58,645 nt of DNA from Solirubrobacterales bacterium (GCA_035554595.1 DATMIH010000170.1:1-58645); one strand, 5' to 3'; counted from the first letter of the stretch, positions 1,618 to 32,578 are shown. The notes: generated from the sequence alone by a model not told the origin. Numbers and translations: made by a program.

Positions 1618-2895
1618 TTGAGCCAAGCAGTTCTCAGCACGCAGGACTCGGGCGTCCGGGTCGTCACCGAGGAGGTCCCCTCGGTGCGATCCGTGGCGCT
1701 CGGTCTCTGGGTGCGCACCGGCTCCCGCAACGAGACCCCGGCCCAGGCCGGCGTCTCGCACTTCCTCGAGCACCTGCTCTTTAAGGGCACCGCGCGTTAC
1801 TCGGCGATCGAGATCGCCGAGAAGCTCGATGGCCTCGGCGCCTCGGTCAACGCGGCGACGGGCAAGGAGACCACGCATCTGCACGCTCGCTTCCTTGACG
1901 AGCACACCGAGGAGGTCTTCGACCTCTTGGCCGAGATGCTGTTGGCGCCGACCTACCCCGAAGTCGACTCCGAGCGCGAGGTAGTGCTCGAGGAGATCGC
2001 GATGTATGAGGACGAGCCGCAGGATCGCGTCCACGACATCCTCGCCGAGGCGGTATTTGGCCAGCACCCACTGGGTCGCCGCGTACTCGGCGAGGCCGAG
2101 GTGATCAGCTCGGTCCCGGTGCCCGATATCGAGGCCTACCGCAGCGCCCGCTATACGGGGGAGACGATCGTCGTTGGCGCCGCCGGCAACGTCGATCACG
2201 CCCGCATCGCCGAGCTCTCCCAGCGCCTCGTGCGTCCCCCGAGCGCCAGCGCCAACGGACAGCCGGCCTCGGCACAGACCGACGAGGCCGCCCGCCTCTG
2301 CTTCTACGAGAAGGACACCGAGCAGTACCACATCTGTTTCGGCGCTCCCGGCATCACCCGCGAGGACGAGCAGCGCTACGCGCTTGCCGTCCTCGACTCG
2401 ATCTTCGGCGGCTCGAGCTCCTCGCGCCTCTTCCGCGAGGTGCGCGAGAAGCGCGGCCTCGCCTACGCGGTCGGCTCCTACAACGAGCAGTACACCGACT
2501 CCGGCCTGATCGCCAGCTACGTCGGCACCCGCGAGGACAACGTCGAGGAGGCCTGTGCGATCATCGGCGCCGAGATGGCGCGCCTGCGCAGCGAGCCGGT
2601 CTCGGCCGAGGAGCTCTCGCGGGCCAAGGAGAACGTCAAGGGCCGCCTCGTCCTCTCCTCCGAGTCGACCGCGGCACGGATGTCGCGGATCTCGCGCGCA
2701 ACGCTCTTCAACCTGCCGATCGACAGCCTCGACGAGATGATCGCCAAGGTCGACGCGGTCGAGGTCGACGACCTGACCGCGCTGGCCACCGAGCTCTACG
2801 GTCCCGAGCGGCTCTCCGCCGCCTGCGTCGGGCGCGACGAGAGCCGCTTCCGCGAGGCGCTCGGGCCGGTCAGCGAGACCCTGGTCGCGGCATGA
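1618..2895 (+). CDS. M16 family zinc peptidase (insulinase/PepR-like)
   Basis: Inverted zinc motif HxxEH (HFLEH). The gene sits directly after pnp, as in actinobacterial pnp-pepR synteny. TTG start 4 nt after the pnp stop. Confidence 0.85.
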   Translation: MSQAVLSTQDSGVRVVTEEVPSVRSVALGLWVRTGSRNETPAQAGVSHFLEHLLFKGTARYSAIEIAEKLDGLGASVNAATGKETTHLHARFLDEHTEEVFDLLAEMLLAPTYPEVDSEREVVLEEIAMYEDEPQDRVHDILAEAVFGQHPLGRRVLGEAEVISSVPVPDIEAYRSARYTGETIVVGAAGNVDHARIAELSQRLVRPPSASANGQPASAQTDEAARLCFYEKDTEQYHICFGAPGITREDEQRYALAVLDSIFGGSSSSRLFREVREKRGLAYAVGSYNEQYTDSGLIASYVGTREDNVEEACAIIGAEMARLRSEPVSAEELSRAKENVKGRLVLSSESTAARMSRISRATLFNLPIDSLDEMIAKVDAVEVDDLTALATELYGPERLSAACVGRDESRFREALGPVSETLVAA

Positions 2896-3557
2896 TCAAG
2901 GTCGCGGTCTCCGGCGCCGCCGGGCGCATGGGCCAGGCGGTCTGCGAGGCGGTGGGGGCCGCCGCCGACGCCGAGCTGAGCGGCATGGCCGATCCGGCCC
3001 TGGAGGTCGAGCTGGCCGAGGTGCTCGGCGATGCCGACGTCGTCGTCGACTTCACCACGCCGGAAACGGCGCTTGCCAACGCCGAAGCCTGTCTGGCGGC
3101 CGGCGTGCATGTCGTCGTCGGCACCACCGGTTTCGATCTCGATGCGCTGAGGGCGGCGGCAGAGGCCTCGACCGCAAACTGCTTCGTCGCGCCCAACTTC
3201 GCGATCGGTGCCGTGCTGCTGATGGAGGTGTCGCAGACGATCGCTCGGCACATGCCCGAGTGCGAGATCATCGAGCTGCATCACGATCGCAAGCTCGACG
3301 CGCCCTCCGGCACCGCCAAGCTCACCGCCGAGCTGATCTCCGGCGCCGGCGGCAACGTCCACGCGCCGATTCACTCGGTGCGCCTGCCGGGCCTGGTCGC
3401 CCACCAAGAAGTGATCTTCGGCGGCGAGGGGCAGACACTCAGCCTGCGCCACGACTCGATCGACCGCCACTCCTTCATGCCTGGTGTGCTGCTCGCCGTG
3501 CGCAAGGTGGCTGATCTGCCGGACCGCTTCACCGTCGGTCTGGAAAAGCTACTCTGA
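2892..3557 (+). CDS. dapB: 4-hydroxy-tetrahydrodipicolinate reductase
   Basis: N-terminal GAAGRMG dinucleotide fold. Signature ELHHDRKLDAPSGTA. ATGA overlap with the upstream stop. Confidence 0.9.
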   Translation: MIKVAVSGAAGRMGQAVCEAVGAAADAELSGMADPALEVELAEVLGDADVVVDFTTPETALANAEACLAAGVHVVVGTTGFDLDALRAAAEASTANCFVAPNFAIGAVLLMEVSQTIARHMPECEIIELHHDRKLDAPSGTAKLTAELISGAGGNVHAPIHSVRLPGLVAHQEVIFGGEGQTLSLRHDSIDRHSFMPGVLLAVRKVADLPDRFTVGLEKLL

Positions 3558-3562
3558 GCGCC

Positions 3563-4441
3563 ATGAAGGAGATTCGCGGAGTCCTGACTGCGATGGCCAC
3601 GCCGTTCGACGAGAACGGTGCGGTCGACGAGGCCGCTGCGCTGAAGCTGGCCACCTACCTGCTCGAGCATGGCTCGCACGGCTTGGTGATCTCGGGATCG
3701 ACCGGTGAGGCGCCGACGCTGACCGACGAGGAGGCGCTGGATCTGCTCAGCGCGGTTCGCCGCGAGGTCGGCGATGAGGTGCTGCTGGCCTGCGGCACCG
3801 GGACCAACTACACCGAGCACTCAATCGAGTTGACAAAGGGCGCGGCCGACGCGGGTGCCGACGCGGCTCTGATCGTCACCCCGTACTACAACAAGCCCAA
3901 TCCGGCCGGCATCCAGGCCCACTTCGAAGCGATCGCCGCGGCGATCCCATCGATGCCGATCATCGCCTACAACATCCCTTCGCGAGTGGTGGTCAACGTG
4001 CCGCCCGAGGGTCTGGCCGAGCTCGCCAAGATCGACAACGTCGTTGCGGTCAAGCAGGCCAACAACGAGGAGATGCAGCCAATAGAGGGCATGGAGATCC
4101 TCGCGGGCAATGACGACGTCTTCCTCAAGACGCTCGAACTTGGCGGTGCTGGCGGCATCCTCGTCGCCTCGCACCTGGCCGGTCCACAGATGCGCGAGAT
4201 GTGGGACGCGGCGCAGGCCGATGACATCGACGGCGCTCGGGACATAGACGTGGGGCTTCGCCAGCTCTACGCGGCAATCGGCGTCACCACTAATCCGATC
4301 CCGGTAAAGGCGGGCCTGGCGATGATGAACTTGATTCCGACCGACACCCTGCGACTCCCCCTGGTGCCCGCCGATGCGGAGCAGCGGGCGACGATGCGGG
4401 CCGCGCTCGAAAGCGTCGGCCTCACCCCGGTGAATCCCTAG
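3563..4441 (+). CDS. dapA: 4-hydroxy-tetrahydrodipicolinate synthase
   Basis: DHDPS-family layout (TPF..G.VD, GSTGE, YNKP, YNIPSR). Adjacent to dapB. Confidence 0.9.
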   Translation: MKEIRGVLTAMATPFDENGAVDEAAALKLATYLLEHGSHGLVISGSTGEAPTLTDEEALDLLSAVRREVGDEVLLACGTGTNYTEHSIELTKGAADAGADAALIVTPYYNKPNPAGIQAHFEAIAAAIPSMPIIAYNIPSRVVVNVPPEGLAELAKIDNVVAVKQANNEEMQPIEGMEILAGNDDVFLKTLELGGAGGILVASHLAGPQMREMWDAAQADDIDGARDIDVGLRQLYAAIGVTTNPIPVKAGLAMMNLIPTDTLRLPLVPADAEQRATMRAALESVGLTPVNP

Positions 4442-15676: not shown

Positions 15677-15710
15677 CGAGTTGGGCCGCGCGGGCGCTAA
15701 CCTCGGCGGC

Positions 15711-17039
15711 ATGAGGAGCGGTAAGCGGTACCACGTCACGACGTTCGGCTGTCAGATGAACGTGCACGACTCCGAGCGGATGCGGGGGATGCTCGAGTCG
15801 CTCGGTTACCAGGAGGCCGAGGCCCCTGACGACGCCGACCTGATCCTCTTCAACACCTGCTCGATCCGCGAGTCGGCTGACAACCGCTTTATCGCTCGCC
15901 TTGGTGAGGCGAAGCGGCTCAAGAACGAGCATCCCGACCGGATCGTGGGGGTCGGGGGCTGCTGGGCGCAGTCGGTCAAGGACGAGGTCTTCCAGCGCTT
16001 TCCCTTCGTCGACGTCGCCTTCGGCCCAGGCCAGATTCACAAGCTGGCCGAGTTCCTCAACTCGGACTCGCTCAGCGCCCAGGGCTACTTCGAGTTCGAG
16101 GACTTCTCCGGCCACCTGCCGACCCGCCGAGTGCGCGAGTTCCAGGGCTGGCTGCAGGTCTCTCAGGGCTGCAACTGCAACTGCGCCTACTGCATTGTCC
16201 CCTCGACCCGGGGGCGCGAGGTCAGCCGTGACCCGGATGAGCTCGTGGCCGAGGCCCAGGCGCTGGCCGCCGACGGCGTGCGCGAGGTCACCCTGCTCGG
16301 CCAGAACGTCAACAGTTACGGGCGCGACCTGCCCAGGGGGTCTCGGATCGGCTTTGCGGAGCTACTGGGCCTGATCGACGGGATCGAAGGGATCGAGCGC
16401 ATCCGCTACACCAGCCCGCATCCCAAGGACATGAAGGAGGACGTGATCCGCGCCCACGCCGACCTTGCCTCGGTCTGCGAGCACATCCACCTGCCCCTGC
16501 AGTCGGGCTCGAGCACGATCCTCAGGCGCATGCGCCGCACCTACGATCGCCAGCGCTACATGGACCGCGTCTCGCTGATCCGCGAGCAAGTTCCCGACTG
16601 CGCGATCACCACCGACATCATCGTCGGCTTCCCCGGTGAGAGCGAGGACGACTTCGAGCAGACGCTGGAAGTGGTTGACGAGGTTGGCTACGACAGCGCC
16701 TTCACCTTCATCTTCTCGCCGCGCCGCGAGACCGAGGCGGCCGAGTTCGGCGATCAGATTCCACACCCGGTCAAGGTCGAGCGGATGGAGCGCCTGGTCG
16801 AGCTGGTGCAGCGGCGAGCCACTGAACGGGCTCAGCGGTTTGTCGGCCGCGAGGTCGAGGTGATGGTCGAAGGCACCAGCCGCACCGACGAGACGCGCCT
16901 GCGCGGGCGTAGCAGGCACAACAAGGCCGTCAACTTCGAGGGCACGGCCTCGCCCGGTGAGCTGGTCGAGGTCGAGATCACCGCCGCAACCTCTCAGACC
17001 CTTACCGGGACCGAGAGACTGCTCAGCCGCGCGCTCTGA
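15711..17039 (+). CDS. miaB: tRNA-2-methylthio-N6-dimethylallyladenosine synthase (radical SAM)
   Basis: UPF0004 N-domain (TFGCQMN), radical SAM CxxxCxxC (CNCNCAYC), and a TRAM-like C-terminus. Confidence 0.92.
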   Translation: MRSGKRYHVTTFGCQMNVHDSERMRGMLESLGYQEAEAPDDADLILFNTCSIRESADNRFIARLGEAKRLKNEHPDRIVGVGGCWAQSVKDEVFQRFPFVDVAFGPGQIHKLAEFLNSDSLSAQGYFEFEDFSGHLPTRRVREFQGWLQVSQGCNCNCAYCIVPSTRGREVSRDPDELVAEAQALAADGVREVTLLGQNVNSYGRDLPRGSRIGFAELLGLIDGIEGIERIRYTSPHPKDMKEDVIRAHADLASVCEHIHLPLQSGSSTILRRMRRTYDRQRYMDRVSLIREQVPDCAITTDIIVGFPGESEDDFEQTLEVVDEVGYDSAFTFIFSPRRETEAAEFGDQIPHPVKVERMERLVELVQRRATERAQRFVGREVEVMVEGTSRTDETRLRGRSRHNKAVNFEGTASPGELVEVEITAATSQTLTGTERLLSRAL

Positions 17040-17041
17040 CG

Positions 17042-17770
17042 GTGCGGGTAATCGCGATCTTCGGCCCTACCGGGGTGGGCAAGACTGGGGTCGCGATCGA
17101 GCTTGCGGAGTTGCTGCGAGAGCGTGGGGAGAATCCGGTTGCGATCTCCTGCGACGCGCTGCAAGTCTATGAGGGCCTCTCGGTCCTGACCGGTGTCGCA
17201 TCGGCCGAGGAGCAAGCACGACTGGAGCACAGGCTGGTCGGCCTCGTGCCGGTGACCGAGCGCTTCAACGTCGGCGATTACATGCCGCTGGCTCACGCGG
17301 AGATCGATCGGGCGTTGGAGGCAGGGCGGCGGCCGATCGTGGTGGGGGGCACAGGTCTCTACATGCGGGCGGCACTGGGGGAGCTATCGCTGGTCAAGGC
17401 GCCGCCGGAGTCCGAGGACTCGGAGCTGTGGTCAGCTGAGACACGGCACCCGACGGCGATCTTCGGCCTCGACATGGAGCGCGAGCGGCTCTACGAGCGC
17501 ATCGACGCGCGGACCGAGGCGATCGTCGCTGCCGGGGCGCGAGCGGAGGTCGAGCGGGCCGAGGCGGCGGGGCCGTCGCGAACGGCGCGCAAGGCGCTTG
17601 GCTTCGACGAGGTGCTCAGCGGCGACCTCGAGACTATGCAGAAGCGCTCACGCAACTACGCCCGGCGACAGCTGACCTGGATGCGCAAGGTTCCCAACCT
17701 GCGCTGGTTCGACCGCACGAACCTCGACGACGCCGAAGCGGCGATCCAGATCATTCGCAATCTCCGCTGA
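17042..17770 (+). CDS. miaA: tRNA dimethylallyltransferase (short form)
   Basis: P-loop GPTGVGKT and the YARRQLTW motif. Directly downstream of miaB. Confidence 0.85.
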   Translation: MRVIAIFGPTGVGKTGVAIELAELLRERGENPVAISCDALQVYEGLSVLTGVASAEEQARLEHRLVGLVPVTERFNVGDYMPLAHAEIDRALEAGRRPIVVGGTGLYMRAALGELSLVKAPPESEDSELWSAETRHPTAIFGLDMERERLYERIDARTEAIVAAGARAEVERAEAAGPSRTARKALGFDEVLSGDLETMQKRSRNYARRQLTWMRKVPNLRWFDRTNLDDAEAAIQIIRNLR

Positions 17771-17836
17771 GTTCGCCCTTTTGGGCGGATATGCACGACA
17801 AAAGGCGAAGTCAGTAGGGGGCAATAGGCTGGGGGC

Positions 17837-18682
17837 GTGCGATTCGAGAAGTGGCAGGCGCTGGGCAACGACTACTTGATCGTCGAGGGGGGCGAGCTCC
17901 CTTGGGAGCTGACGTCGGGGCGGGTGCGGCGAGTCTGTGATCCGCATTTCGGCATTGGTGCCGATGGAGTGCTCCTGCTCTCGCGCAGCGAGGATCCGGC
18001 TTACGTCGCCGAGCTGCGGATCTTCAACCCGGACGGCTCCGAGGCCGAGCTCTCCGGCAACGGTGCGCGCGAGGCGATCCTCTACCTGCGCCGCCACGGC
18101 TGGACCAAGGAGGACACTTTCTCGATCCTCACAGCGGCCGGCGCGGTGACGCCGACGATCACCTCGGAGCGCACCTGCTCGGTGGCGATGGGGCGGGCGA
18201 GCACTGCCTCCAAGGATTTTCCCGACGGTGGATCGGACGGCCGCGGCAGCCTGAGCAGCGGCGGTCGCGAGTGGGTCTTCCAGCACGTCTCGATCGGCAA
18301 CCCCCAGTGCGCGATCGTGGTCGGCGAGGAGCTCGAGAGCTTGGATCTGGGCGCGGTCGGACCCGGGATCGAAGGCAACGCGCTCTTCCCCAATCGCACC
18401 AACGTCTCCTTCCTGCGCATCGACGGCAGCCGAGTGCGGGCGCGGATCTTCGAGCGCGGCGTGGGGGAGACGCTCTCCTCGGGTACCGGCGCCAGCGGTG
18501 CCGCGGTCACGGCCTTCCTTAACGGCGCCCCGAGTCCGATCACGGTTGAGCTCGACGGCGGTGAGCTCGTGGTCGAGATCTCCGGCGATCTCGACGTAAC
18601 GTTGAGTGGCTGGGCCGAGCAGATCTGCGCCGGTGAGCTCTCGGCCGAGCTGCTGAGCGCACTCGCCGGCCTGGACGGCTAG
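17837..18682 (+). CDS. dapF: Diaminopimelate epimerase homolog with Ser in place of both catalytic Cys
   Basis: DapF motifs are present: ALGNDY, FNPDGSEAELSGNGAR, GNPQC, ERGVGETLSSGTGA. It occupies the conserved miaA-dapF position. S73 (TCC 18053-18055) and S215 (TCG 18479-18481) sit where Cys is expected. Confidence 0.8.
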   Translation: MRFEKWQALGNDYLIVEGGELPWELTSGRVRRVCDPHFGIGADGVLLLSRSEDPAYVAELRIFNPDGSEAELSGNGAREAILYLRRHGWTKEDTFSILTAAGAVTPTITSERTCSVAMGRASTASKDFPDGGSDGRGSLSSGGREWVFQHVSIGNPQCAIVVGEELESLDLGAVGPGIEGNALFPNRTNVSFLRIDGSRVRARIFERGVGETLSSGTGASGAAVTAFLNGAPSPITVELDGGELVVEISGDLDVTLSGWAEQICAGELSAELLSALAGLDG

Positions 18683-18694
18683 ATTTCCGCGCCG

Positions 18695-19864
18695 ATGGCG
18701 ATCTCGGATCCGTCCAAACGACTGGAGGCGATGCCTCCCTACAAGTTCCAGGAGCTGGAGCGGACGATTGCCGACAAGCGCGCCGCCGGCATCGACGTGA
18801 TCAGCCTCGGCATCGGCGACCCCGACGAACCGACCTACCCGCACATTGTCTCGGCGATGCAGGAGGCGGTGGCCGCGCCCGGCAACCAGCAGTACCCCAG
18901 CAACCGCGGACGCGAGGAGTTCCGGGGGGCCTTCGCCGAGTTTTATGACCGCCGCTTCGGGGTCGAGATCGACCCCGAAAGCGAGGTGATCCCCGCGATC
19001 GGCGCCAAGGAGTGCATCTACAACCTCTGCTTCGCCTTCCTCGATCCCGGCGACGTGGCGCTCGCCTCCGACCCGGGCTACCCGGTCTACACCGGCGGTC
19101 CGATCCTCGCCGGAGCCTCGGCCGAGCTGCTGCCTCTGGTGCCCGATCTCGGCTTCGCGCCAGACCTCAGCGCGATCCCGGCGGACGTGGCGGCAAAGGC
19201 GCGACTGATGTTCATCAACTTCCCCAACAATCCGACCGGCGCCGTCGTACCCGAGGGCTTCTTCGAGATGGTTGTCTCCTTTGCCCGCGAGCACGAGATC
19301 CTCGTCGTCCACGACAACGCTTACTCGGAGACGACCTACGACGGCTACGTCGCGCCCAGCTTCCTCGCCACCCCCGGCGCCAAGGAGATCGGGGTCGAGG
19401 TCTTCTCACTTTCCAAGGGTTTCAACATGACCGGCTGGCGCTGCGCCGCGATCCTCGGCAACGCTGAGGCGGTGCAGACCTACTGGCGGCTCAAGACCAA
19501 CGTCGACTCAGGCCTCTTCGAGGCCGTGCAGATGGCCGGCGTCGCCGCCCTCCAGGGGCCCAGCGGGCCGCTGGGGCGGATGAACGAGACCTACACGCGC
19601 CGCCGCGACCTCGTCGTCAACGCCCTGCGCGAGATCGGGGTCGAGGTCACCGCACCAAAGGGCACGATCTACGTCTGGGCCCCCGTGCCAGAGGGTCACA
19701 CCTCGACCTCATTCGCCGAGCTCGTACTCGAAGAGGCCGCGGTGGTCGTCTCCCCAGGCTCGATGTACGGGCCCAGCGGCGAGGGCTTCTTCCGCATCTC
19801 GCTGACCACCCCCGACGACCGCATCACCGAGGCGGTTGAGCGGATGCGTAAGTACCTGAGTTGA
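18695..19864 (+). CDS. dapL: Class I/II PLP aminotransferase, most likely LL-diaminopimelate aminotransferase (DapL type)
   Basis: MPPYKFQEL..ISLGIGDPD N-terminus, NPTGAV, PLP-lysine motif SLSKGFNMTGWR, and YVWAPVPEG. Adjacent to dapF. Confidence 0.65.
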   Translation: MAISDPSKRLEAMPPYKFQELERTIADKRAAGIDVISLGIGDPDEPTYPHIVSAMQEAVAAPGNQQYPSNRGREEFRGAFAEFYDRRFGVEIDPESEVIPAIGAKECIYNLCFAFLDPGDVALASDPGYPVYTGGPILAGASAELLPLVPDLGFAPDLSAIPADVAAKARLMFINFPNNPTGAVVPEGFFEMVVSFAREHEILVVHDNAYSETTYDGYVAPSFLATPGAKEIGVEVFSLSKGFNMTGWRCAAILGNAEAVQTYWRLKTNVDSGLFEAVQMAGVAALQGPSGPLGRMNETYTRRRDLVVNALREIGVEVTAPKGTIYVWAPVPEGHTSTSFAELVLEEAAVVVSPGSMYGPSGEGFFRISLTTPDDRITEAVERMRKYLS

Positions 19865-19895: not shown

Positions 19896-19925
19896 TTGCG
19901 AACGATACGGTCCATAAATGGGAAA

Positions 19926-19945
19926 ATCGTCCCGCTCGGGAAGAT
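19926..19945. promoter_or_regulatory. hipBA operator palindrome 2
   Basis: ATCGTCCCGCTCGGGAAGAT, 50 bp downstream of copy 1. Confidence 0.65.
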
Positions 19946-19974
19946 TCTCTGGTATTACCGGTCGATTCCCTAAT

Positions 19975-19994
19975 ATCTTCCCGAACGGGATGAT
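19975..19994. promoter_or_regulatory. hipBA operator palindrome 3 (inverted orientation, overlaps the hipB start codon)
   Basis: ATCTTCCCGAACGGGATGAT is the reverse complement of copy 1 with one mismatch. A TAATAT -10-like hexamer lies at 19971-19976. Confidence 0.6.
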
Positions 19995-20208
19995 AAGCGG
20001 CCGTATTCAAACTCCTGAGCAGTTGGGTGCTCGCATACGCGAACGGCGCGTCGACTTGCGACTGACGCAGGAGGCAACCGCTGCCGTGGCCGCGGTGACG
20101 CCGAGATTGGTGGGGGAAGTCGAGCGGGGAAAGAAGACGGCACAACTCGATGGGTTGCTTCGCATATTGGGGGCCCTGGGCATCGACGTCATCGTGCAGG
20201 CGCGATGA
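19990..20208 (+). CDS. hipB: XRE-family HTH antitoxin (HipB-like)
   Basis: Cro/C1-type HTH (LGARIRERRVDLRLTQEATA). Its stop overlaps the hipA start (ATGA). I preferred the ATG at 19990 over the track start at 19918, which would run through the operators. Confidence 0.8.
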   Translation: MISGRIQTPEQLGARIRERRVDLRLTQEATAAVAAVTPRLVGEVERGKKTAQLDGLLRILGALGIDVIVQAR

Positions 20209-21476
20209 CGTGGCTTGATGTCTATTTCCATTCCGATCGCGTCGGCCGCCTGGAACGACTGGAGCAAGCGCGTCTCAAATTTGTCTACGAGCCGAGCTGG
20301 GTGGATGCGGGCGGAGCTCCGCTCTCGCTGAGCCTGCCCGTCAGGCTCGAACCCTTCGAGGACGGTGAGTGCCGGCCCTTCTTCGCCGGTCTACTACCAG
20401 AGGGCGATTTCCTCAAATCGATAGCGCGTGCCTTTCAGGTCTCCGCCGACAACCCCTTCAGCGTTCTCACGGAGATAGGGGGGGAGTGTGCGGGCGCTGT
20501 CTCCCTGGCCTCTCCGGGAAGCGAGCCGCCCTTCGTCTCGATTGCGCCTCCTACCTGGCTCGATGACAAAGGTCTGGGCGAGCTGCTCACCGAACTTCCC
20601 AGGCGGCCCCTGCTGATCGGCCTCGACGACGAAGACGAAGGCGTACGACTCTCGCTTGCAGGGGCCCAGGACAAGCTCCCCGTTCTCGCCCGAGATACGG
20701 AACTTGGAATCACGCGAGGGCGACCCCCCAGCACGCACATCATCAAGGCCCCTATTCCCGACGTCGAGGGCATGGTCGTAAACGAGGCCTTTTGTATGGC
20801 GCTGGCGAGGGAGGTGGGACTGACCGCTGCCGATGCATGCCCAATTCGGGCGGGCGGACAGGATGCCTTGCTGGTTACGCGCTACGACCGGACGCGCACC
20901 GGCATCTCGGTTCATCGAATCCACCAGGAGGACTTCTGCCAGGCGCTCGGTTATCTGCCCGAGCAGAAGTACGAGTCGGAAGGGGGGCCCGGCATCGAAG
21001 CATGTGGGCAGCTCCTTCGCGACAGGTCGGCCGCCCCGGCCCTCGACCTCTTTACCTTTCTCGACGCCCTGATCTTCAATCTGCTGATCGGCAACGCGGA
21101 TGCTCACTCCAAGAACTACTCGCTGCTGCTGGAGGGCGAGGGATCACCACGGATGGCGCCTTTGTACGACTTGCTTTCCACGCGGGTCTACGGCCACCGG
21201 TTTGGCCGCAAGATGGCGATGAAGTACGGCGGGGAGTACAGGTATGACCGGATCCGGGGCCGCCACCTCGATCGGCTCGCCAAGGAACTGGGAGTTTCCG
21301 CCGGGTTGACAAGGCATAGGGTCGCCGATCTTTCGAGCCGGATCATCGTCTCTCGTGAGCCGGCGCGACGGCGGTTGCCGAAGGCCCGGCAGGACGCTGA
21401 GGTGATAGGCGGAATTGAAGGCGTGATCGAGGACGCCGTGCAGAGACTGGCGACGGCGATAACCGAACCCGCTTAG
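20205..21476 (+). CDS. hipA: HipA-family serine/threonine kinase toxin (type II TA)
   Basis: HipA N-terminal coupling domain, the GAQDKLPV motif, and the catalytic loop GNADAHSKNYSLL. Confidence 0.88.
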   Translation: MTWLDVYFHSDRVGRLERLEQARLKFVYEPSWVDAGGAPLSLSLPVRLEPFEDGECRPFFAGLLPEGDFLKSIARAFQVSADNPFSVLTEIGGECAGAVSLASPGSEPPFVSIAPPTWLDDKGLGELLTELPRRPLLIGLDDEDEGVRLSLAGAQDKLPVLARDTELGITRGRPPSTHIIKAPIPDVEGMVVNEAFCMALAREVGLTAADACPIRAGGQDALLVTRYDRTRTGISVHRIHQEDFCQALGYLPEQKYESEGGPGIEACGQLLRDRSAAPALDLFTFLDALIFNLLIGNADAHSKNYSLLLEGEGSPRMAPLYDLLSTRVYGHRFGRKMAMKYGGEYRYDRIRGRHLDRLAKELGVSAGLTRHRVADLSSRIIVSREPARRRLPKARQDAEVIGGIEGVIEDAVQRLATAITEPA

Positions 21477-24750: not shown

Positions 24751-25182
24751 GTGAAGCTGCCGATCTCGAGGCTCAACGACGACGCCGTGCTGCCCAGCCG
24801 CGCCCACGAGGGTGACGCCGGGCTCGATCTTTATGCCTGTGAGGCTGCGCACATCGGGCCAGGGGAGCGCTGGAGCGTCGGCACCGGGATCGCGGTCGAG
24901 ATCCCCGACGGCCACGCCGGCCTGGTGCTGCCGCGCTCGGGCCTGGCCAAGCGCCACGGCATCAGCCTGGTCAACAGCCCCGGCCTGATCGACTCGGGCT
25001 ACCGCGGCGAGATTCGCGTCCTCCTGCTCAACACCGACCCGGCCGAGGTCTTTCGGGTCGCGCCCGGCGACCGCATCGCCCAGCTCGTGATCACCCCGAT
25101 CGCCCCGGCCGAGCCGGTCGAGTCTGAGGCTCTCGCCGACTCCGCCCGCGGTGACGGCGGCTTCGGCTCAAGCGGCCGCTAG
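24751..25182 (+). CDS. dut: dUTP diphosphatase
   Basis: Motifs AGLDLYA, PRSGLA and GLIDSGYRGE. GTG 24751 lies just after the hflX stop. Confidence 0.9.
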   Translation: MKLPISRLNDDAVLPSRAHEGDAGLDLYACEAAHIGPGERWSVGTGIAVEIPDGHAGLVLPRSGLAKRHGISLVNSPGLIDSGYRGEIRVLLLNTDPAEVFRVAPGDRIAQLVITPIAPAEPVESEALADSARGDGGFGSSGR

Positions 25183-25913
25183 CCCAGCGCTGCCCGCCGC
25201 GCCGACTCGTGTGCCGCACGCTCGAGCCCGTCCTCGAGCGCTCCGAGCTCGGGGCGCTTGCCATAGCGACGCTCTAGCGCAAGCGCGATCAGGTGGTCGG
25301 CCAGCCAGGCGTTCTTGGGTAGCAGCGGCCCGTGCAGGTAGGTGCCAATCAGGTTGTTGAGCCACACACCCTCGAGGCCGTCCTCGCCGTTGTTGCCGAA
25401 GCCCTTCAACACCTTGCCCAGCGCCGCCGCCCCGGCGCCGAGGTGGGTCCGGCCGCCGTGGTTCTCGAAGCCGGCGAGGACCCGCGGTCCGTCGCCGAGG
25501 TCGACCTCGATCGCGACGTTGCCGATCAGGCGCGGCCCCGGGCTGCGGACCGTCTTCAGGTCGACCAGGCCGAGCCCCGGCAGGCTCTCATCGTCAAGCT
25601 GATAACTGCTGCCGAGCAACTGGTAGCCGCCGCAGACGGCGAGCACGACGGCGCCGTCCCCGGTCGCCTCCACCATCGCGACCTGCTTGCTCTCGACCAT
25701 GTCGGCGGCCACGACCCGCTGGTCGCGATCCTGGCCGCCGCCGAGGTAGATGAAATCGTGGGCGGTGGGATCGAACTCTTCGCCGGGACCGGCACTGGCG
25801 TAGGCAAAGTCGATGCCGCGCCACTCGCAGCGCCGCTGCAGGAAGAGGACGTTGCCTCGATCGGCGTAGATGTTCATCTGCTCGGGGTAGAGGGCGAGGA
25901 AGCGGAGCTCCAT
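25179..25913 (-). CDS. gatD: Lipid II isoglutaminyl synthase glutaminase subunit GatD (CobQ-like GATase)
   Basis: YPEQMNIYADRGN N-terminus and catalytic Cys motif CGGYQLLG. Same operon as murT. The ATG overlaps the upstream stop (TGATG). Confidence 0.8.
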   Translation of the reverse strand: MELRFLALYPEQMNIYADRGNVLFLQRRCEWRGIDFAYASAGPGEEFDPTAHDFIYLGGGQDRDQRVVAADMVESKQVAMVEATGDGAVVLAVCGGYQLLGSSYQLDDESLPGLGLVDLKTVRSPGPRLIGNVAIEVDLGDGPRVLAGFENHGGRTHLGAGAAALGKVLKGFGNNGEDGLEGVWLNNLIGTYLHGPLLPKNAWLADHLIALALERRYGKRPELGALEDGLERAAHESARRAALG

Positions 25914-26641
25914 CAAGCCACCTTCTCGAAGAGAACGACGGTGGAGCCGACGTGGGCTTCGGTCGCGGGTATCTGGCGTCGCCCGCTCGGGCGCAGACCG
26001 GCGGCGCGGCCCTCTTCTTCGAGCGTCTCGGCCGAGAGCATCGCCAGCTCGAGCTCGTTCAGCTCCTCACTCATGTTGCCGTCGGGATCGACCGTCTGGC
26101 GCAGCCGGCGCAGCAGGATCGCTTCCGGCAGTGCCACTGGCTCGAGCGGCAGGCTCGAGTAGATCCAGCCTTCGATCTCGCGCACGTCGGGCAGCGGCGG
26201 CGCGCTCGTGCCTGGGGGCGGCGGATCGGGCATCTGTTCGACGATCGCGAAGGCGGCGCGCGCACCCGGCAGCATGCTGTCGACGACGCAGGAGAGGCAG
26301 GAGACCCGCTCCTGACTATCGCTGAGCAGTTGGATCAGCTGCATCGGCGCGATCACCAGGCTGAACTTGGTCGCCATCGGTTCAAAGGCGCGGATGTCCT
26401 CTTGCTCGGCGTCGGCTGTCGTCCCGTGCCCCCTTTCCCAGATCGCCTCGACCAACTTCCTGTTGTGGTCGAAGCCGATCACGAGCAGGCCGGTCTTCTC
26501 GGCGAGGTGGAGCGTGACCCGCCCGGCGCCGCAGCCGAGCTCCAGAATCGGCTTGTCGGTTCGCCCGGCGAGCTCCTCCCAGAGGGCGAGGTCGGCGGTG
26601 TAGGCGCCGCACTCAACTTCGTGCCAGATCAGGCTGTTCAC
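25913..26641 (-). CDS. Class I SAM-dependent methyltransferase inserted between murT and gatD
   Basis: Motif I ILELGCGAGR and an acidic motif II (VIGFDHN). GTGA overlap with the murT stop and TGATG overlap with the gatD start. Confidence 0.8.
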   Translation of the reverse strand: MNSLIWHEVECGAYTADLALWEELAGRTDKPILELGCGAGRVTLHLAEKTGLLVIGFDHNRKLVEAIWERGHGTTADAEQEDIRAFEPMATKFSLVIAPMQLIQLLSDSQERVSCLSCVVDSMLPGARAAFAIVEQMPDPPPPGTSAPPLPDVREIEGWIYSSLPLEPVALPEAILLRRLRQTVDPDGNMSEELNELELAMLSAETLEEEGRAAGLRPSGRRQIPATEAHVGSTVVLFEKVA

Positions 26642-28008
26642 CGCCAGAACTCCTCGGCGAGGCCACGGTCCGCGAGCAGCTTGCGCAGCTCGAGCAGTGC
26701 CGTGTAGGTGGGCAGGGCGAAGAGGCGCTTGGGGGACTCCAAGAGCGCCCGGTCAAGCGAGTCCTCGACTCCCGGTACGACCAGGATCGAGCGCTCGGGC
26801 CAGCCGGCGTACTTAAGTCTCAGGGCCATCTCCGGCGCTCGCGTGCCGGCGCAGATGACGCGCCGCACGCCGCCGGCAAGCAGCTCAAAATCCGCATCCC
26901 AGATCCAGGAGACATCGCGCCCGTCGGCGATCCTGTCGTTGAGCCCAATCCAGAGGTCGAGCTTCTCCGCGCCGGCCTCGAGCATCAGCGTGCGCAGGAC
27001 CTCGTTGGCGCCGGCCGGGTTCTTGATCAGCAGGATCGAGAGCTGTGAGGAACCGATCGCGATCGTCTCGACTCGGCCGAAGGCGGCCCGCATCGTCTGC
27101 AGCGAGCTGGCGATCGTCGCTGGCGCCACCCCGAGCTCGAGCGCGGCGGTGACTGCGGCGAGCGCGTTGTAGACGTTGTAGAGGCCGGGCAGCGGCAGTT
27201 GCAGCTCGATCTCTCCTTGTGGGGTGCGCACGGTCACCAGCGAGCCCGACATCCCGCGCAGCTCGATCGCCGTGGCGGCGACGTCGGGCCGCGGCCGCGT
27301 GGCGCCGCAGTTGGGGCAGGAGTAGTGGCCGAGGTGGCCGACGAAGGCGCGCTCATAGGCATAGGGGTGGCCGCAGCGGCGGCAGTGCTTGGCGTCGAAA
27401 GCGTGCTGCAGCTCGGGCAGGGCCTGAGTCGCATCCTCGATGCCGAAATAGACGACCCCCGCGCGGGCCTCGCCGCTCTCCTCGCGACCGAGGTCGGCGA
27501 TCGCCGGGTCGTCGGCGTTGAGCGCGAAGCGGCTGTATCCGGTGCGCGAGGCGACGGCCTTGCCCCACTCGGCGGCGAGCGTCTCCATCTCGCCGTAGCG
27601 ATCGAGCTGGTCGCGGAAGAGGTTGCCGAGCACCAGCAGCGAGGGCTCGAGCTGGGAGGTGACCTTGGGCAGCCAGGCCTCGTCGACCTCAAAGAGCCCT
27701 TCGGAGCCCCGCTGCTCGAGCAGGGCGGTGGCAACTCCCCAGGTCATGTTTGAGCCGGCACGGTTGTGGACCGGGTGGCGGCCGTCGGCCTCGAGCGCGG
27801 CGGCGACCATCCCGGCGGTCGTCGTCTTGCCGTTGGTGGCGCTGATCAGCGTCGAGCCGCGATCGAGGCGCTTGCCGAGCCTGGCGATCGCGTCGGGCGC
27901 GATGCGCAGCAGCATCCGTCCCGGCAGCGTCGTGCCGCCGCCGCGTCCGCTCGCCCGGCTGGCTACGCCGACCGCGCGCGCCGCGGTGAGCTTTGCGCCG
28001 AACAGCAC
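26638..28008 (-). CDS. murT: Lipid II isoglutaminyl synthase ligase subunit MurT (Mur ligase family)
   Basis: Mur ligase P-loop ATNGKTTT, the MurT-specific Cys4 ribbon (CRRCG...CPNCG), and a C-terminal DUF1727-like domain. Confidence 0.85.
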   Translation of the reverse strand: MLFGAKLTAARAVGVASRASGRGGGTTLPGRMLLRIAPDAIARLGKRLDRGSTLISATNGKTTTAGMVAAALEADGRHPVHNRAGSNMTWGVATALLEQRGSEGLFEVDEAWLPKVTSQLEPSLLVLGNLFRDQLDRYGEMETLAAEWGKAVASRTGYSRFALNADDPAIADLGREESGEARAGVVYFGIEDATQALPELQHAFDAKHCRRCGHPYAYERAFVGHLGHYSCPNCGATRPRPDVAATAIELRGMSGSLVTVRTPQGEIELQLPLPGLYNVYNALAAVTAALELGVAPATIASSLQTMRAAFGRVETIAIGSSQLSILLIKNPAGANEVLRTLMLEAGAEKLDLWIGLNDRIADGRDVSWIWDADFELLAGGVRRVICAGTRAPEMALRLKYAGWPERSILVVPGVEDSLDRALLESPKRLFALPTYTALLELRKLLADRGLAEEFWR

Positions 28009-31379: not shown

Positions 31380-31811
31380 ATGAAAGCACCGGCCGAGGGC
31401 ACGCTGCGGGGAATTGCGACCTTCCTCGCCACTTTCGGCATCGGCGTCGCCACCTACATCGCGATCGCCGACTCAGGCGGCGGCTCGCCCGTCTGCATCG
31501 CCGGCGGCCACGGCTGCCAGACGGTTGCCGAAAGCTCCTACTCGCATCTAGCCGGGGTCAACATCGCGATCTTCGGTATCGGCGGCTACGTGGTGCTGCT
31601 CGCCTGCGCTCTGCTGCGCGGCGACGCCTTCCGCATGGTCGGCTTCGTCGTCTCGCTGATCGGCTTCGGCTACAGCCTCTACCTGACCTACCTCGAGCTC
31701 TTCACGATCGACGCGGTCTGCCAGTGGTGCGTGGCGAGTGCGGTACTGATGACCCTGCTCTTTGTTACCAACGCAGTGCGCATGCTGGCCTACGTCGGAA
31801 GCGAGCCATGA
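31380..31811 (+). CDS. Vitamin K epoxide reductase (VKOR) family membrane protein
   Basis: Four predicted TM helices, a loop Cys pair (SPVCIAGGHGC), and the active-site CxxC (CQWC). Confidence 0.8.
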   Translation: MKAPAEGTLRGIATFLATFGIGVATYIAIADSGGGSPVCIAGGHGCQTVAESSYSHLAGVNIAIFGIGGYVVLLACALLRGDAFRMVGFVVSLIGFGYSLYLTYLELFTIDAVCQWCVASAVLMTLLFVTNAVRMLAYVGSEP

Positions 31812-32578
31812 GCGGCCGCAGCGATCGCGAGGCGCGCCGCGAAGAGCGCCTGCAAGAAGAGCAGCAGGCCGGGGCGGCGGAGCGACGTCAGCGCATGGTC
31901 AAGCTGGCCAGCGCCGGCGCCTTTCTGGCGCTGGCCGTGGTTGCGGTCCTGATCGTGGTCAGCAGTAGCGACAACGGCGGCGGCGACAGCAGCAATATCG
32001 TCGAAGCCAAGGAGGTCGACCAGCTCCTCGCCGGAATTCCCCAGAAGGGCATGGTTCTGGGTGATCCGAGCGCCAAGGTGACGGTGCTCGAGTTCGGCGA
32101 TCTGCAGTGCCCGTTCTGCAAGGGATACTCAGAAGAAGTGCTGCCCCAGGTGATCGAAAACCGCGTGCAAGGCGGCGAAGCGAAGCTCGCCTTCCGCAAT
32201 TACACGATCATCGGCCCGCAGTCCAAGCCGGCCGGGGCGGCCGCAATCGCCGCTGGAGAACAGGGCCGCGGCTGGAACTTCGTCGAGCTCTTCTACCGCA
32301 ACCAGGGCACCGAGGACACCGGTTACGCCGACGACGAATTCCTCACGGCGATCGCCAAGGCCGCCGGGGTGCCGAACCTGGCCAAGTGGAACCGGGCGCG
32401 AAAGAGCCAGACCGTGATCGCGCGGGTCGAAGCGACGAGTGCCGAAGCCCAAGAACTGGGATTCAGCGGGACTCCGTCGTTTGCACTTGAAGGGCCCCGG
32501 GCAAAGGGAGTCGAAGCGATCGCAACGCCGGAATCGGCCGATGCGCTCGAATCGGCAATCGAAGACGCAGGGGGATAG
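31808..32578 (+). CDS. DsbA-like thioredoxin-fold thiol:disulfide oxidoreductase, membrane-anchored
   Basis: CPFC active site inside a DsbA-like fold, and an N-terminal TM anchor. ATGA overlap with the VKOR gene. Confidence 0.85.
   Translation: MSGRSDREARREERLQEEQQAGAAERRQRMVKLASAGAFLALAVVAVLIVVSSSDNGGGDSSNIVEAKEVDQLLAGIPQKGMVLGDPSAKVTVLEFGDLQCPFCKGYSEEVLPQVIENRVQGGEAKLAFRNYTIIGPQSKPAGAAAIAAGEQGRGWNFVELFYRNQGTEDTGYADDEFLTAIAKAAGVPNLAKWNRARKSQTVIARVEATSAEAQELGFSGTPSFALEGPRAKGVEAIATPESADALESAIEDAGG

Follow-up and report, generated by a model that had tools for sequence, protein, structure and literature searches.

Diaminopimelate (DAP) epimerase, DapF, is the textbook cofactor-independent two-thiol racemase and a long-standing antibiotic target, the best inhibitors of which, the aziridino-DAPs, alkylate the catalytic cysteines. 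Here we describe the dapF gene at positions 17837–18682 of a 58,645-nt stretch of DNA from a Solirubrobacterales bacterium, a soil actinobacterium (GCA_035554595.1, DATMIH010000170.1:1-58645; the whole stretch is referred to as the window), the product of which carries serine at the positions of both catalytic cysteines and glutamine at that of the catalytic histidine. It is a DapF homologue and positional orthologue lacking the catalytic residues by which the two-thiol class is recognised, and we put at roughly 0.55 the probability that it is a working epimerase of LL-DAP to meso-DAP, with hydroxyl instead of thiol acid/base groups. It may be that not all DapFs follow the textbook two-thiol mechanism.

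Canonical DapF (EC 5.1.1.7) is known from Haemophilus influenzae, Escherichia coli, Mycobacterium tuberculosis, Corynebacterium glutamicum, Anabaena and Arabidopsis. The window DapF has the same two-domain fold, belongs to the same TIGR00652 family, shares the DAP-binding residues and the equivalent of Glu208 with these enzymes, and occupies the same miaA-dapF-hflX gene position as actinobacterial DapFs; however, the catalytic triplet is Cys/His/Cys in canonical DapF and Ser/Gln/Ser here, and the PROSITE-type Cys signature is absent. Recent structural and mechanistic papers on DapF and a 2021 racemase review (PMC8142540) treat the Cys pair as universal, and the review holds no case in which both bases are replaced by Ser. 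The same substitution at the same positions is present in the C73S and C217S mutants of H. influenzae DapF (PDB 2q9h and 2q9j), which were among the top structural matches of the window DapF. These are single laboratory mutants, made because the change hinders catalysis (PMC12039745), whereas both serines of the window protein occur naturally and have become fixed in the lineage under purifying selection, alongside other lineage changes.

A hydroxyl at a catalytic Cys position is also found in the Thr/Cys enzymes EcL-DER and MMP0739, which give a precedent for a hydroxyl residue in place of one Cys in cofactor-independent racemases, and in Cys/Thr proline-racemase-like dehydratases (PMC8142540). 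Unlike the window DapF, these enzymes belong to other families and have one Cys replaced, and their reactions are unidirectional racemisation or dehydration (PMC8142540). Another non-thiol route to the same reaction of lysine synthesis is DapF2 of staphylococci (bioRxiv 10.1101/2024.10.14.618325), an Alr2-like enzyme dependent on pyridoxal phosphate (PLP); DapF2 is cofactor-dependent and has an unrelated fold, whereas the window protein is genuinely homologous to DapF. Full-text literature searches found no account of natural Ser/Ser or other non-Cys DapFs, although closed-access papers or database annotation may mention them.

Identity and active site of the window DapF

By sequence and by fold, the open reading frame (ORF) at 17837–18682 is a full-length DapF. 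A domain search gave two PF01678 (DAP_epimerase) domains (E = 1.3e-38), and the score against the NCBIfam equivalog TIGR00652 was 189.4 bits (cutoff 114.65), while NF038284, the bifunctional DapF/glutamate racemase of the Chlamydia type, was matched at 46.5 bits, below its cutoff of 350. When PDB sequences were searched with phmmer, all solved DapFs were recovered with E values from 1e-42 to 1e-22 (1e-42 to 1e-38 for 9mro, 5ha4 and 3ejx). An AlphaFold2 (AF2) model was built from a 47-sequence alignment, with a predicted local distance difference test (pLDDT) score of 91.6 and a predicted template modelling (pTM) score of 0.88. Foldseek matched this model to DapF crystal structures, including 8qzy, 9mro, 4ijz, 5ha4 and 1bwz, with TM-scores of 0.82–0.89, and it has the pseudo-symmetric two-domain DapF fold with two central helices directed to the active site. 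The DapF fold proposed in the original prediction was thus borne out. Positions of the gene and of its active-site codons are as follows (residues of canonical DapF in H. influenzae numbering).

17837–18682, + strand: dapF homologue, 281 aa, GTG start, intact frame; active site Ser73/Gln157/Ser215
18053–18055, + strand: codon TCC of Ser73, at the position of catalytic Cys73 in the alignments to 9mro, 5ha4 and 3ejx
18305–18307, + strand: codon CAG of Gln157, at the position of catalytic His159 ('GNPQC' versus 'GNPHC')
18452–18457, + strand: Glu206-Arg207, matching Glu208-Arg209; catalytic Glu and the Arg of the distal carboxylate both kept and invariant in all groups
18479–18481, + strand: codon TCG of Ser215, at the position of catalytic Cys217 in the same phmmer alignments

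An antisense ORF of 554 aa (17648–19312, − strand) covers dapF and part of the downstream dapL and was treated as non-coding; long shadow ORFs are frequent in the window, which we attribute to its high G+C content.

In the phmmer alignments, 'SEAELSGNGAR' of the window protein pairs with 'SEPEMCGNGIR', and 'GETLSSGTGA' pairs with 'GITLACGTGA', with no gaps around either motif. The Cys73 signature N-x-D-G-S-x4-C-G-N-G-x-R is not matched, the residue in question being Ser73 in 'NPDGSEAELSGNGAR', and the Cys217 expected of the two-thiol class is Ser215 in 'ETLSSGTGA'. Ser73 and Ser215 sit directly before helices 74–86 and 216–228 of the AF2 model, i.e. at the positions of the catalytic cysteines of DapF. 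A shifted alignment hiding a Cys was ruled out by the ungapped motifs and the agreeing helix boundaries; the only nearby cysteines are Cys34 and Cys158, both of which are also common in canonical DapFs. The original prediction had placed Ser at both catalytic Cys positions, with the same two codons, and had proposed a structure-guided alignment against curated DapF as a check; alignment and model agree with it in both columns, but it missed the loss of the catalytic His.

Regarding the helper residues, His159 is lost (Gln157) and Glu208 is kept (Glu206). His159 was present in 16/16 Cys/Cys and in 56/56 Ser/His/Ser comparison sequences. Group-wise comparison of alignment columns indicated that the residues that contact DAP through hydrogen bonds in crystal structures, N11, N64, G74, N75, N155, N189, E206, R207, G216 and T217, are all kept and are invariant in the clade. 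In crystal structures, contacts to DAP are made by N11, N64, G74, N75, N157, N190, R209, G218 and S/T219 of the H. influenzae numbering (PMC12039745), and the roles of Glu208 as catalytic Glu and of Arg209 as ligand of the distal carboxylate have been described (PMC12039745, PMC5885031). By the same comparison, changes specific to the clade are C73S, C215S, H157Q, R36P, E191S, W205F, A214S and A221G.

Conservation and distribution of Ser/Ser DapFs

Orthologues from GTDB species representatives were compared as the best 80 of 546, which were 73–85% identical and almost all labelled Solirubrobacterales. Ser73, Gln157 and Ser215 were present in 80/80 of these species genomes. Moreover, Ser/Gln/Ser was found in all 120 of the closest protein clusters (84–94% identity), and a profile made from more distant members returned 118 further listed matches, including metagenome-assembled genomes (MAGs) of Solirubrobacteraceae and Thermoleophilaceae, every one of which was again Ser/Gln/Ser (238/238 listed clusters for both sets together). 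Across the 80 genomes, the codon of Ser73 was TCC, TCG, TCA or TCT and that of Ser215 was TCC, TCG or TCT, with both residues constant; this synonymous drift around a fixed residue indicates selection for serine itself. The ratio of nonsynonymous to synonymous substitution rates (dN/dS, Nei-Gojobori method, relative to the window) was 0.26 for dapF, compared with 0.16 for dapL, 0.14 for recA, 0.19 for miaB, 0.20 for hflX and 0.20 for miaA; these absolute values are approximate, as GC bias influences dS. The window dapF is clearly under purifying selection, which is perhaps slightly relaxed.

Another 10 ENA contigs, assembled independently from different samples, encode a protein identical to the window DapF, and a sequencing or assembly error was ruled out by this identity together with the invariance in relatives. 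Independent assemblies and related genomes, both of which the original prediction had named as checks, thus uphold the serines observed in this one genome; missed in that prediction was that the Ser/Ser state is fixed order-wide and recurs in a large family across many phyla. The cluster look-ups and the profile search, which gave MAG names (Solirubrobacteraceae, Thermoleophilaceae, Gaiellales) and Cryobacterium lyxosi only, did not return DapF of cultured Conexibacter, Solirubrobacter or Patulibacter. In all cultured Solirubrobacterales, meso-DAP is reported to be the diagnostic diamino acid of the cell wall (PMC3035278), a link to the Ser/Gln/Ser gene that is made at the level of the order only; the order therefore needs an epimerase or a bypass.

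An exhaustive phmmer search was made over 1.84 billion cluster representatives, among which organism names are known for a minority of the metagenomic proteins only. The nearest relatives of the window DapF formed three groups, Ser/Gln/Ser, Ser/His/Ser and ordinary Cys/His/Cys. In Gaiellales, the sister order within Thermoleophilia, DapF is Ser/His/Ser and 47% identical to the window DapF, and the gene order is miaB-miaA-x-dapF-dapL-hflX. A large Ser/His/Ser family, here called 'GYTLASGSS', has the consensus 'FNPDGSEAEKSGNGLR ... GNPHC ... ERGAGYTLASGSS' and accounted for 119 of the top 120 profile-search matches; where organism names are given, its members belong to Verrucomicrobia, KSB1, Methylomirabilis, Planctomycetes, SAR324 and two cultured Nostoc strains. 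Like the window DapF, the family is Ser/Ser, keeps the DAP-binding residues and scores above the TIGR00652 cutoff. Its genes often belong to lysine operons or encode fusions with LysA or MurE. Unlike the window DapF, the family keeps His159 and has a signature of its own, namely Lys72, Gln191, Tyr211, Ser218 and Ser219. The TIGR00652 cutoff was exceeded by 9/9 proteins tested (eight Ser/Ser members and one Cys/Cys control).

Identity to the window DapF was 38% for the 'GYTLASGSS' family and 38.5% for Cys/Cys DapFs, and a neighbour-joining tree, which is crude and unbootstrapped, did not unite the Ser/Ser groups. A single origin of Ser/Ser is thus unsupported by this tree and by the group identities, and the Ser/Ser state probably arose more than once. 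Given also its His159 and its own signature, the 'GYTLASGSS' family probably represents a thiol-free DapF lineage of its own. In an analysis of group-specific positions for a compensating base, the only residues common to both Ser/Ser lineages yet absent from Cys/Cys DapFs were the two serines and one Val-to-Ile change; Tyr13 and Cys158 showed enrichment but are also present in canonical enzymes.

Outside Solirubrobacterales, a tie to DAP metabolism was seen in 5/9 contexts sampled, plus three fusions. Two KSB1-type contigs carry lysC-dapB-dapA-dapF(Ser/Ser)-dapL-lysA, and in both of them the Ser/Ser gene is the sole candidate for the step from DapL to LysA; the order dapF(Ser/Ser)-dapA-dapB occurs on one contig. 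The gene of a Ser/Gln/Ser protein with 51% identity to the window DapF lies between miaA and hflX and adjoins a dapD-type succinyltransferase, an aminotransferase and an M20 dapE-like peptidase, i.e. the succinylase branch and not DapL. Fusions of LysA with a Ser/Ser DapF were found in two different cluster representatives (LysA part 410 and 360 bits; TIGR01048 cutoff 298), and a fusion of a Ser/Ser DapF with MurE was found in one (MurE part 434 bits; NF001126 cutoff 373).

Other members of these groups were recorded as well. In the cultured organism Nostoc sp. FACHB-152, the Ser/Ser gene (L085, 8001–8858) adjoins a Uma2 nuclease and a RecQ helicase, and in Cryobacterium lyxosi, also cultured, the gene (L088, 6664–7506) is on a contig of 9 kb, with helix-turn-helix regulators and a methyltransferase around it. 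An additional paralogue is the probable explanation of the Nostoc copy; both copies may be extra paralogues with another role, and the Cryobacterium one may possibly be contamination. A pair of metagenome proteins (P0238, P0247) comprises a Ser/His/Ser DapF domain fused to a class I S-adenosylmethionine-dependent methyltransferase (534 aa) and one (453 aa) fused to a GGACT domain similar to gamma-glutamyl cyclotransferase, neither of which is explained by lysine biosynthesis. Apparent MiaA+DapF fusions and odd residue triplets also occurred among metagenome representatives; frameshifts were seen in at least two of these (P0144, P0148), and the others are likely frameshifted gene calls and were set aside.

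A proposed thiol-free epimerase and its alternatives

With the Cys pair changed to Ser and His159 changed to Gln, the thiol/thiolate mechanism cannot operate in the window DapF. The simplest account of the intact DAP site, the invariant serines, the purifying selection and the position of DapF in lysine operons would be an epimerase that works without thiols. The window dapF, orthologous to actinobacterial dapF and at the customary miaB-miaA-dapF location, would then be the working epimerase gene of the lineage, and its product would convert LL-DAP from the adjoining DapL to meso-DAP for lysine and peptidoglycan. We infer that acid/base chemistry would fall to Ser73 and Ser215, acting as hydroxyl/alkoxide themselves or via a bound water, in place of the thiol/thiolate pair, with Glu206 as the sole classical helper left. 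Turnover would probably be modest. Thiol oxidation would not affect such an enzyme, its site being presumably immune to the disulfide inactivation of the oxidized C. glutamicum DapF structure 5h2g. Among the three readings offered in the original prediction, an epimerase with unusual chemistry is the best supported, as Ser/Ser DapFs of other lineages take the place of DapF in lysine operons and occur as fusions with LysA and MurE. Extending this to the natural thiol-free DapFs at large, we see about even odds that they are active LL/meso-DAP epimerases, and the first cofactor-independent amino-acid epimerases with serine-hydroxyl two-base 1,1-proton transfer, here without the His helper. Such enzymes would be fixed in an actinobacterial order and, probably independently, in a large multi-phylum family, and may represent an oxidation-proof substitute for a Cys pair that is prone to disulfide formation.

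Several points weigh against an active enzyme. Both Cys, His159 and Glu208 have all been named essential for epimerisation (PMC5885031), and three of these four residues are replaced in the window DapF, Glu206 alone remaining. In DapF and related racemases, engineered Cys-to-Ser changes cause strong impairment (PMC12039745, PMC11602996), and the 2021 review ascribes the preference for Cys to easier desolvation and a lower pKa, its natural exceptions being single Cys-to-Thr changes only, with unidirectional racemisation or dehydration (PMC8142540). The E. coli dapF null mutant grows with no growth defect, hence other enzymes can supply DapF activity, and the PLP-type DapF2 exists elsewhere (bioRxiv 10.1101/2024.10.14.618325). 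Four Ser/Ser members, in Nostoc, Cryobacterium lyxosi and two MAG contigs, lie in unrelated contexts, and for every Ser/Ser member the epimerase function is a prediction. As for rate, the kcat of M. tuberculosis DapF is 0.15 s−1 (PMC8142540), and this value together with the growing E. coli null mutant suggests that modest rates may be enough.

Possible, but on balance unlikely, is a DAP-binding pseudoenzyme, i.e. a sensor, regulator or partner (e.g. of DapL, LysA or MurE), with meso-DAP supplied by a DapF2-type enzyme, a promiscuous racemase or Ddh. The replacement of three of the four residues held essential for catalysis (PMC5885031) beside an intact DAP-binding site would suit such a role, and E. 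coli DapF has a documented non-enzymatic function as partner of RppH (PDB 6d13 and 6vck, both among the Foldseek matches). The existence of the non-homologous DapF2 and the growth of E. coli dapF nulls (bioRxiv 10.1101/2024.10.14.618325) are consistent with it, as is a dN/dS of dapF slightly above that of neighbouring genes. However, a mere binder needs no specific serine, yet Ser is invariant across lineages only ∼37% identical; the Ser/Ser gene fills the only otherwise missing enzymatic step in the lysC-dapB-dapA-dapF-dapL-lysA operons, and no second DapF-like gene was present in any of the 90 fetched loci.

A shade more doubtful is a neofunctionalised enzyme on the DapF scaffold, which would carry out a unidirectional stereoinversion, or the elimination or isomerisation of a DAP-related compound. 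The parallel is the conversion of proline-racemase-like epimerases into dehydratases by a Cys-to-Thr change, and natural Cys-to-Thr changes in related superfamilies alter the direction or type of the reaction (PMC8142540). Some family members in non-DAP contexts or fused to a methyltransferase or GGACT domain, and the extra lineage changes near the site (H157Q, E191S, R36P, W205F, A214S), point the same way. Nevertheless, the distal-site residues that specify DAP are all unchanged, the window gene is orthologous by position to canonical dapF and stays linked to dapL in 80/80 genomes, DAP is without a leaving group for elimination, and the sole reaction between DapL and LysA or MurE is that of LL-DAP to meso-DAP.

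Highly improbable is an inactive relic, as the original prediction had also suggested, or an artefact of sequencing or assembly, the lineage using LL-DAP or taking its lysine from another source: engineered Cys-to-Ser variants are indeed impaired (PMC12039745), but the conservation data largely refute it, with the identical protein in 10 other assemblies, an unbroken frame across 80 species genomes and hundreds of clusters, Ser and binding residues invariant, Ser codons varying synonymously only, a dN/dS of 0.26, and meso-DAP reported for all cultured Solirubrobacterales (PMC3035278).

If the Ser versions are active, Cys is no chemical requirement for Cα deprotonation in the DapF fold, and models based on thiolate desolvation and helix dipoles must take in alkoxide or water-mediated transfer. 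For abundant soil Thermoleophilia and several candidate phyla, annotation rules that use the Cys signature would, in that case, miscall lysine and peptidoglycan pathways as incomplete. If the Ser versions are inactive, the Ser/Ser lineages must have an unrecognised route to meso-DAP, and the Ser/Ser proteins would be widespread DAP-binding pseudoenzymes embedded in lysine operons.

Gene neighbourhood in the window

The gene order in the window is dapB, dapA, RNase J, ftsK, cinA, recA, miaB, miaA, dapF and dapL, with hflX further downstream. The miaB-miaA-dapF synteny and the DapL-type neighbour described in the original prediction were both recovered, and the genes that bear on the pathway and on the slot are listed below.

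2892–3557, + strand: dapB, 4-hydroxy-tetrahydrodipicolinate reductase; TIGR00036, 188 bits (cutoff 122)
3563–4441, + strand: dapA, 4-hydroxy-tetrahydrodipicolinate synthase; TIGR00674, 257.7 bits (cutoff 206)
15681–17039, + strand: miaB; TIGR01574, 497 bits; conserved actinobacterial miaB-miaA-dapF slot
17042–17770, + strand: miaA, short form of 242 aa; TIGR00174, 125 bits, below the cutoff of 148.65; assigned with synteny
18695–19864, + strand: dapL, LL-diaminopimelate aminotransferase; NF006756, 535 bits (cutoff 507); 12 bp past dapF

In all 80 related genomes dapL adjoins dapF, with a gap of mostly 6–78 bp. Terminator-like sites were absent between miaB and dapL, Rfam gave no matches in the window, and a second DapF, lysA, murE or ddh was found neither in the window nor in the 90 fetched loci and flanks.

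The window miaA encodes 242 aa, compared with 294–327 aa in Gaiellales and another relative, and its TIGR00174 match falls in two stretches. The same 242-aa miaA is present on 9/10 contigs with the identical DapF, the tenth contig being too short to include miaA; the short form is therefore a lineage feature and not a truncation artefact. The window dapB is also short (221 aa), with a TIGR00036 match that falls in two stretches and is above the cutoff; its start codon may be mis-set or its N-terminal domain reduced.

Downstream of dapL, a hipB/hipA-type toxin-antitoxin pair (19918–21476) is inserted between dapL and a gene of the metallo-beta-lactamase (MBL) fold. Since hipA or hipB occurs at this spot in only ∼8/80 related genomes, the pair is a recent, variable insertion. 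Further downstream, MurT- and GatD-like genes (lipid II isoglutaminyl synthase; 25179–28008, − strand) gave scores of 253 versus 800 and 173 versus 400, far below the cutoffs; such genes also lie near dapF in Gaiellales, which suggests amidated peptidoglycan stem peptides in the class. Finally, an ORF at 31724–32578 has a weak match to the Rcas_1661 thioredoxin-like (seleno)lipoprotein family (82.8 bits, below the cutoff of 190).

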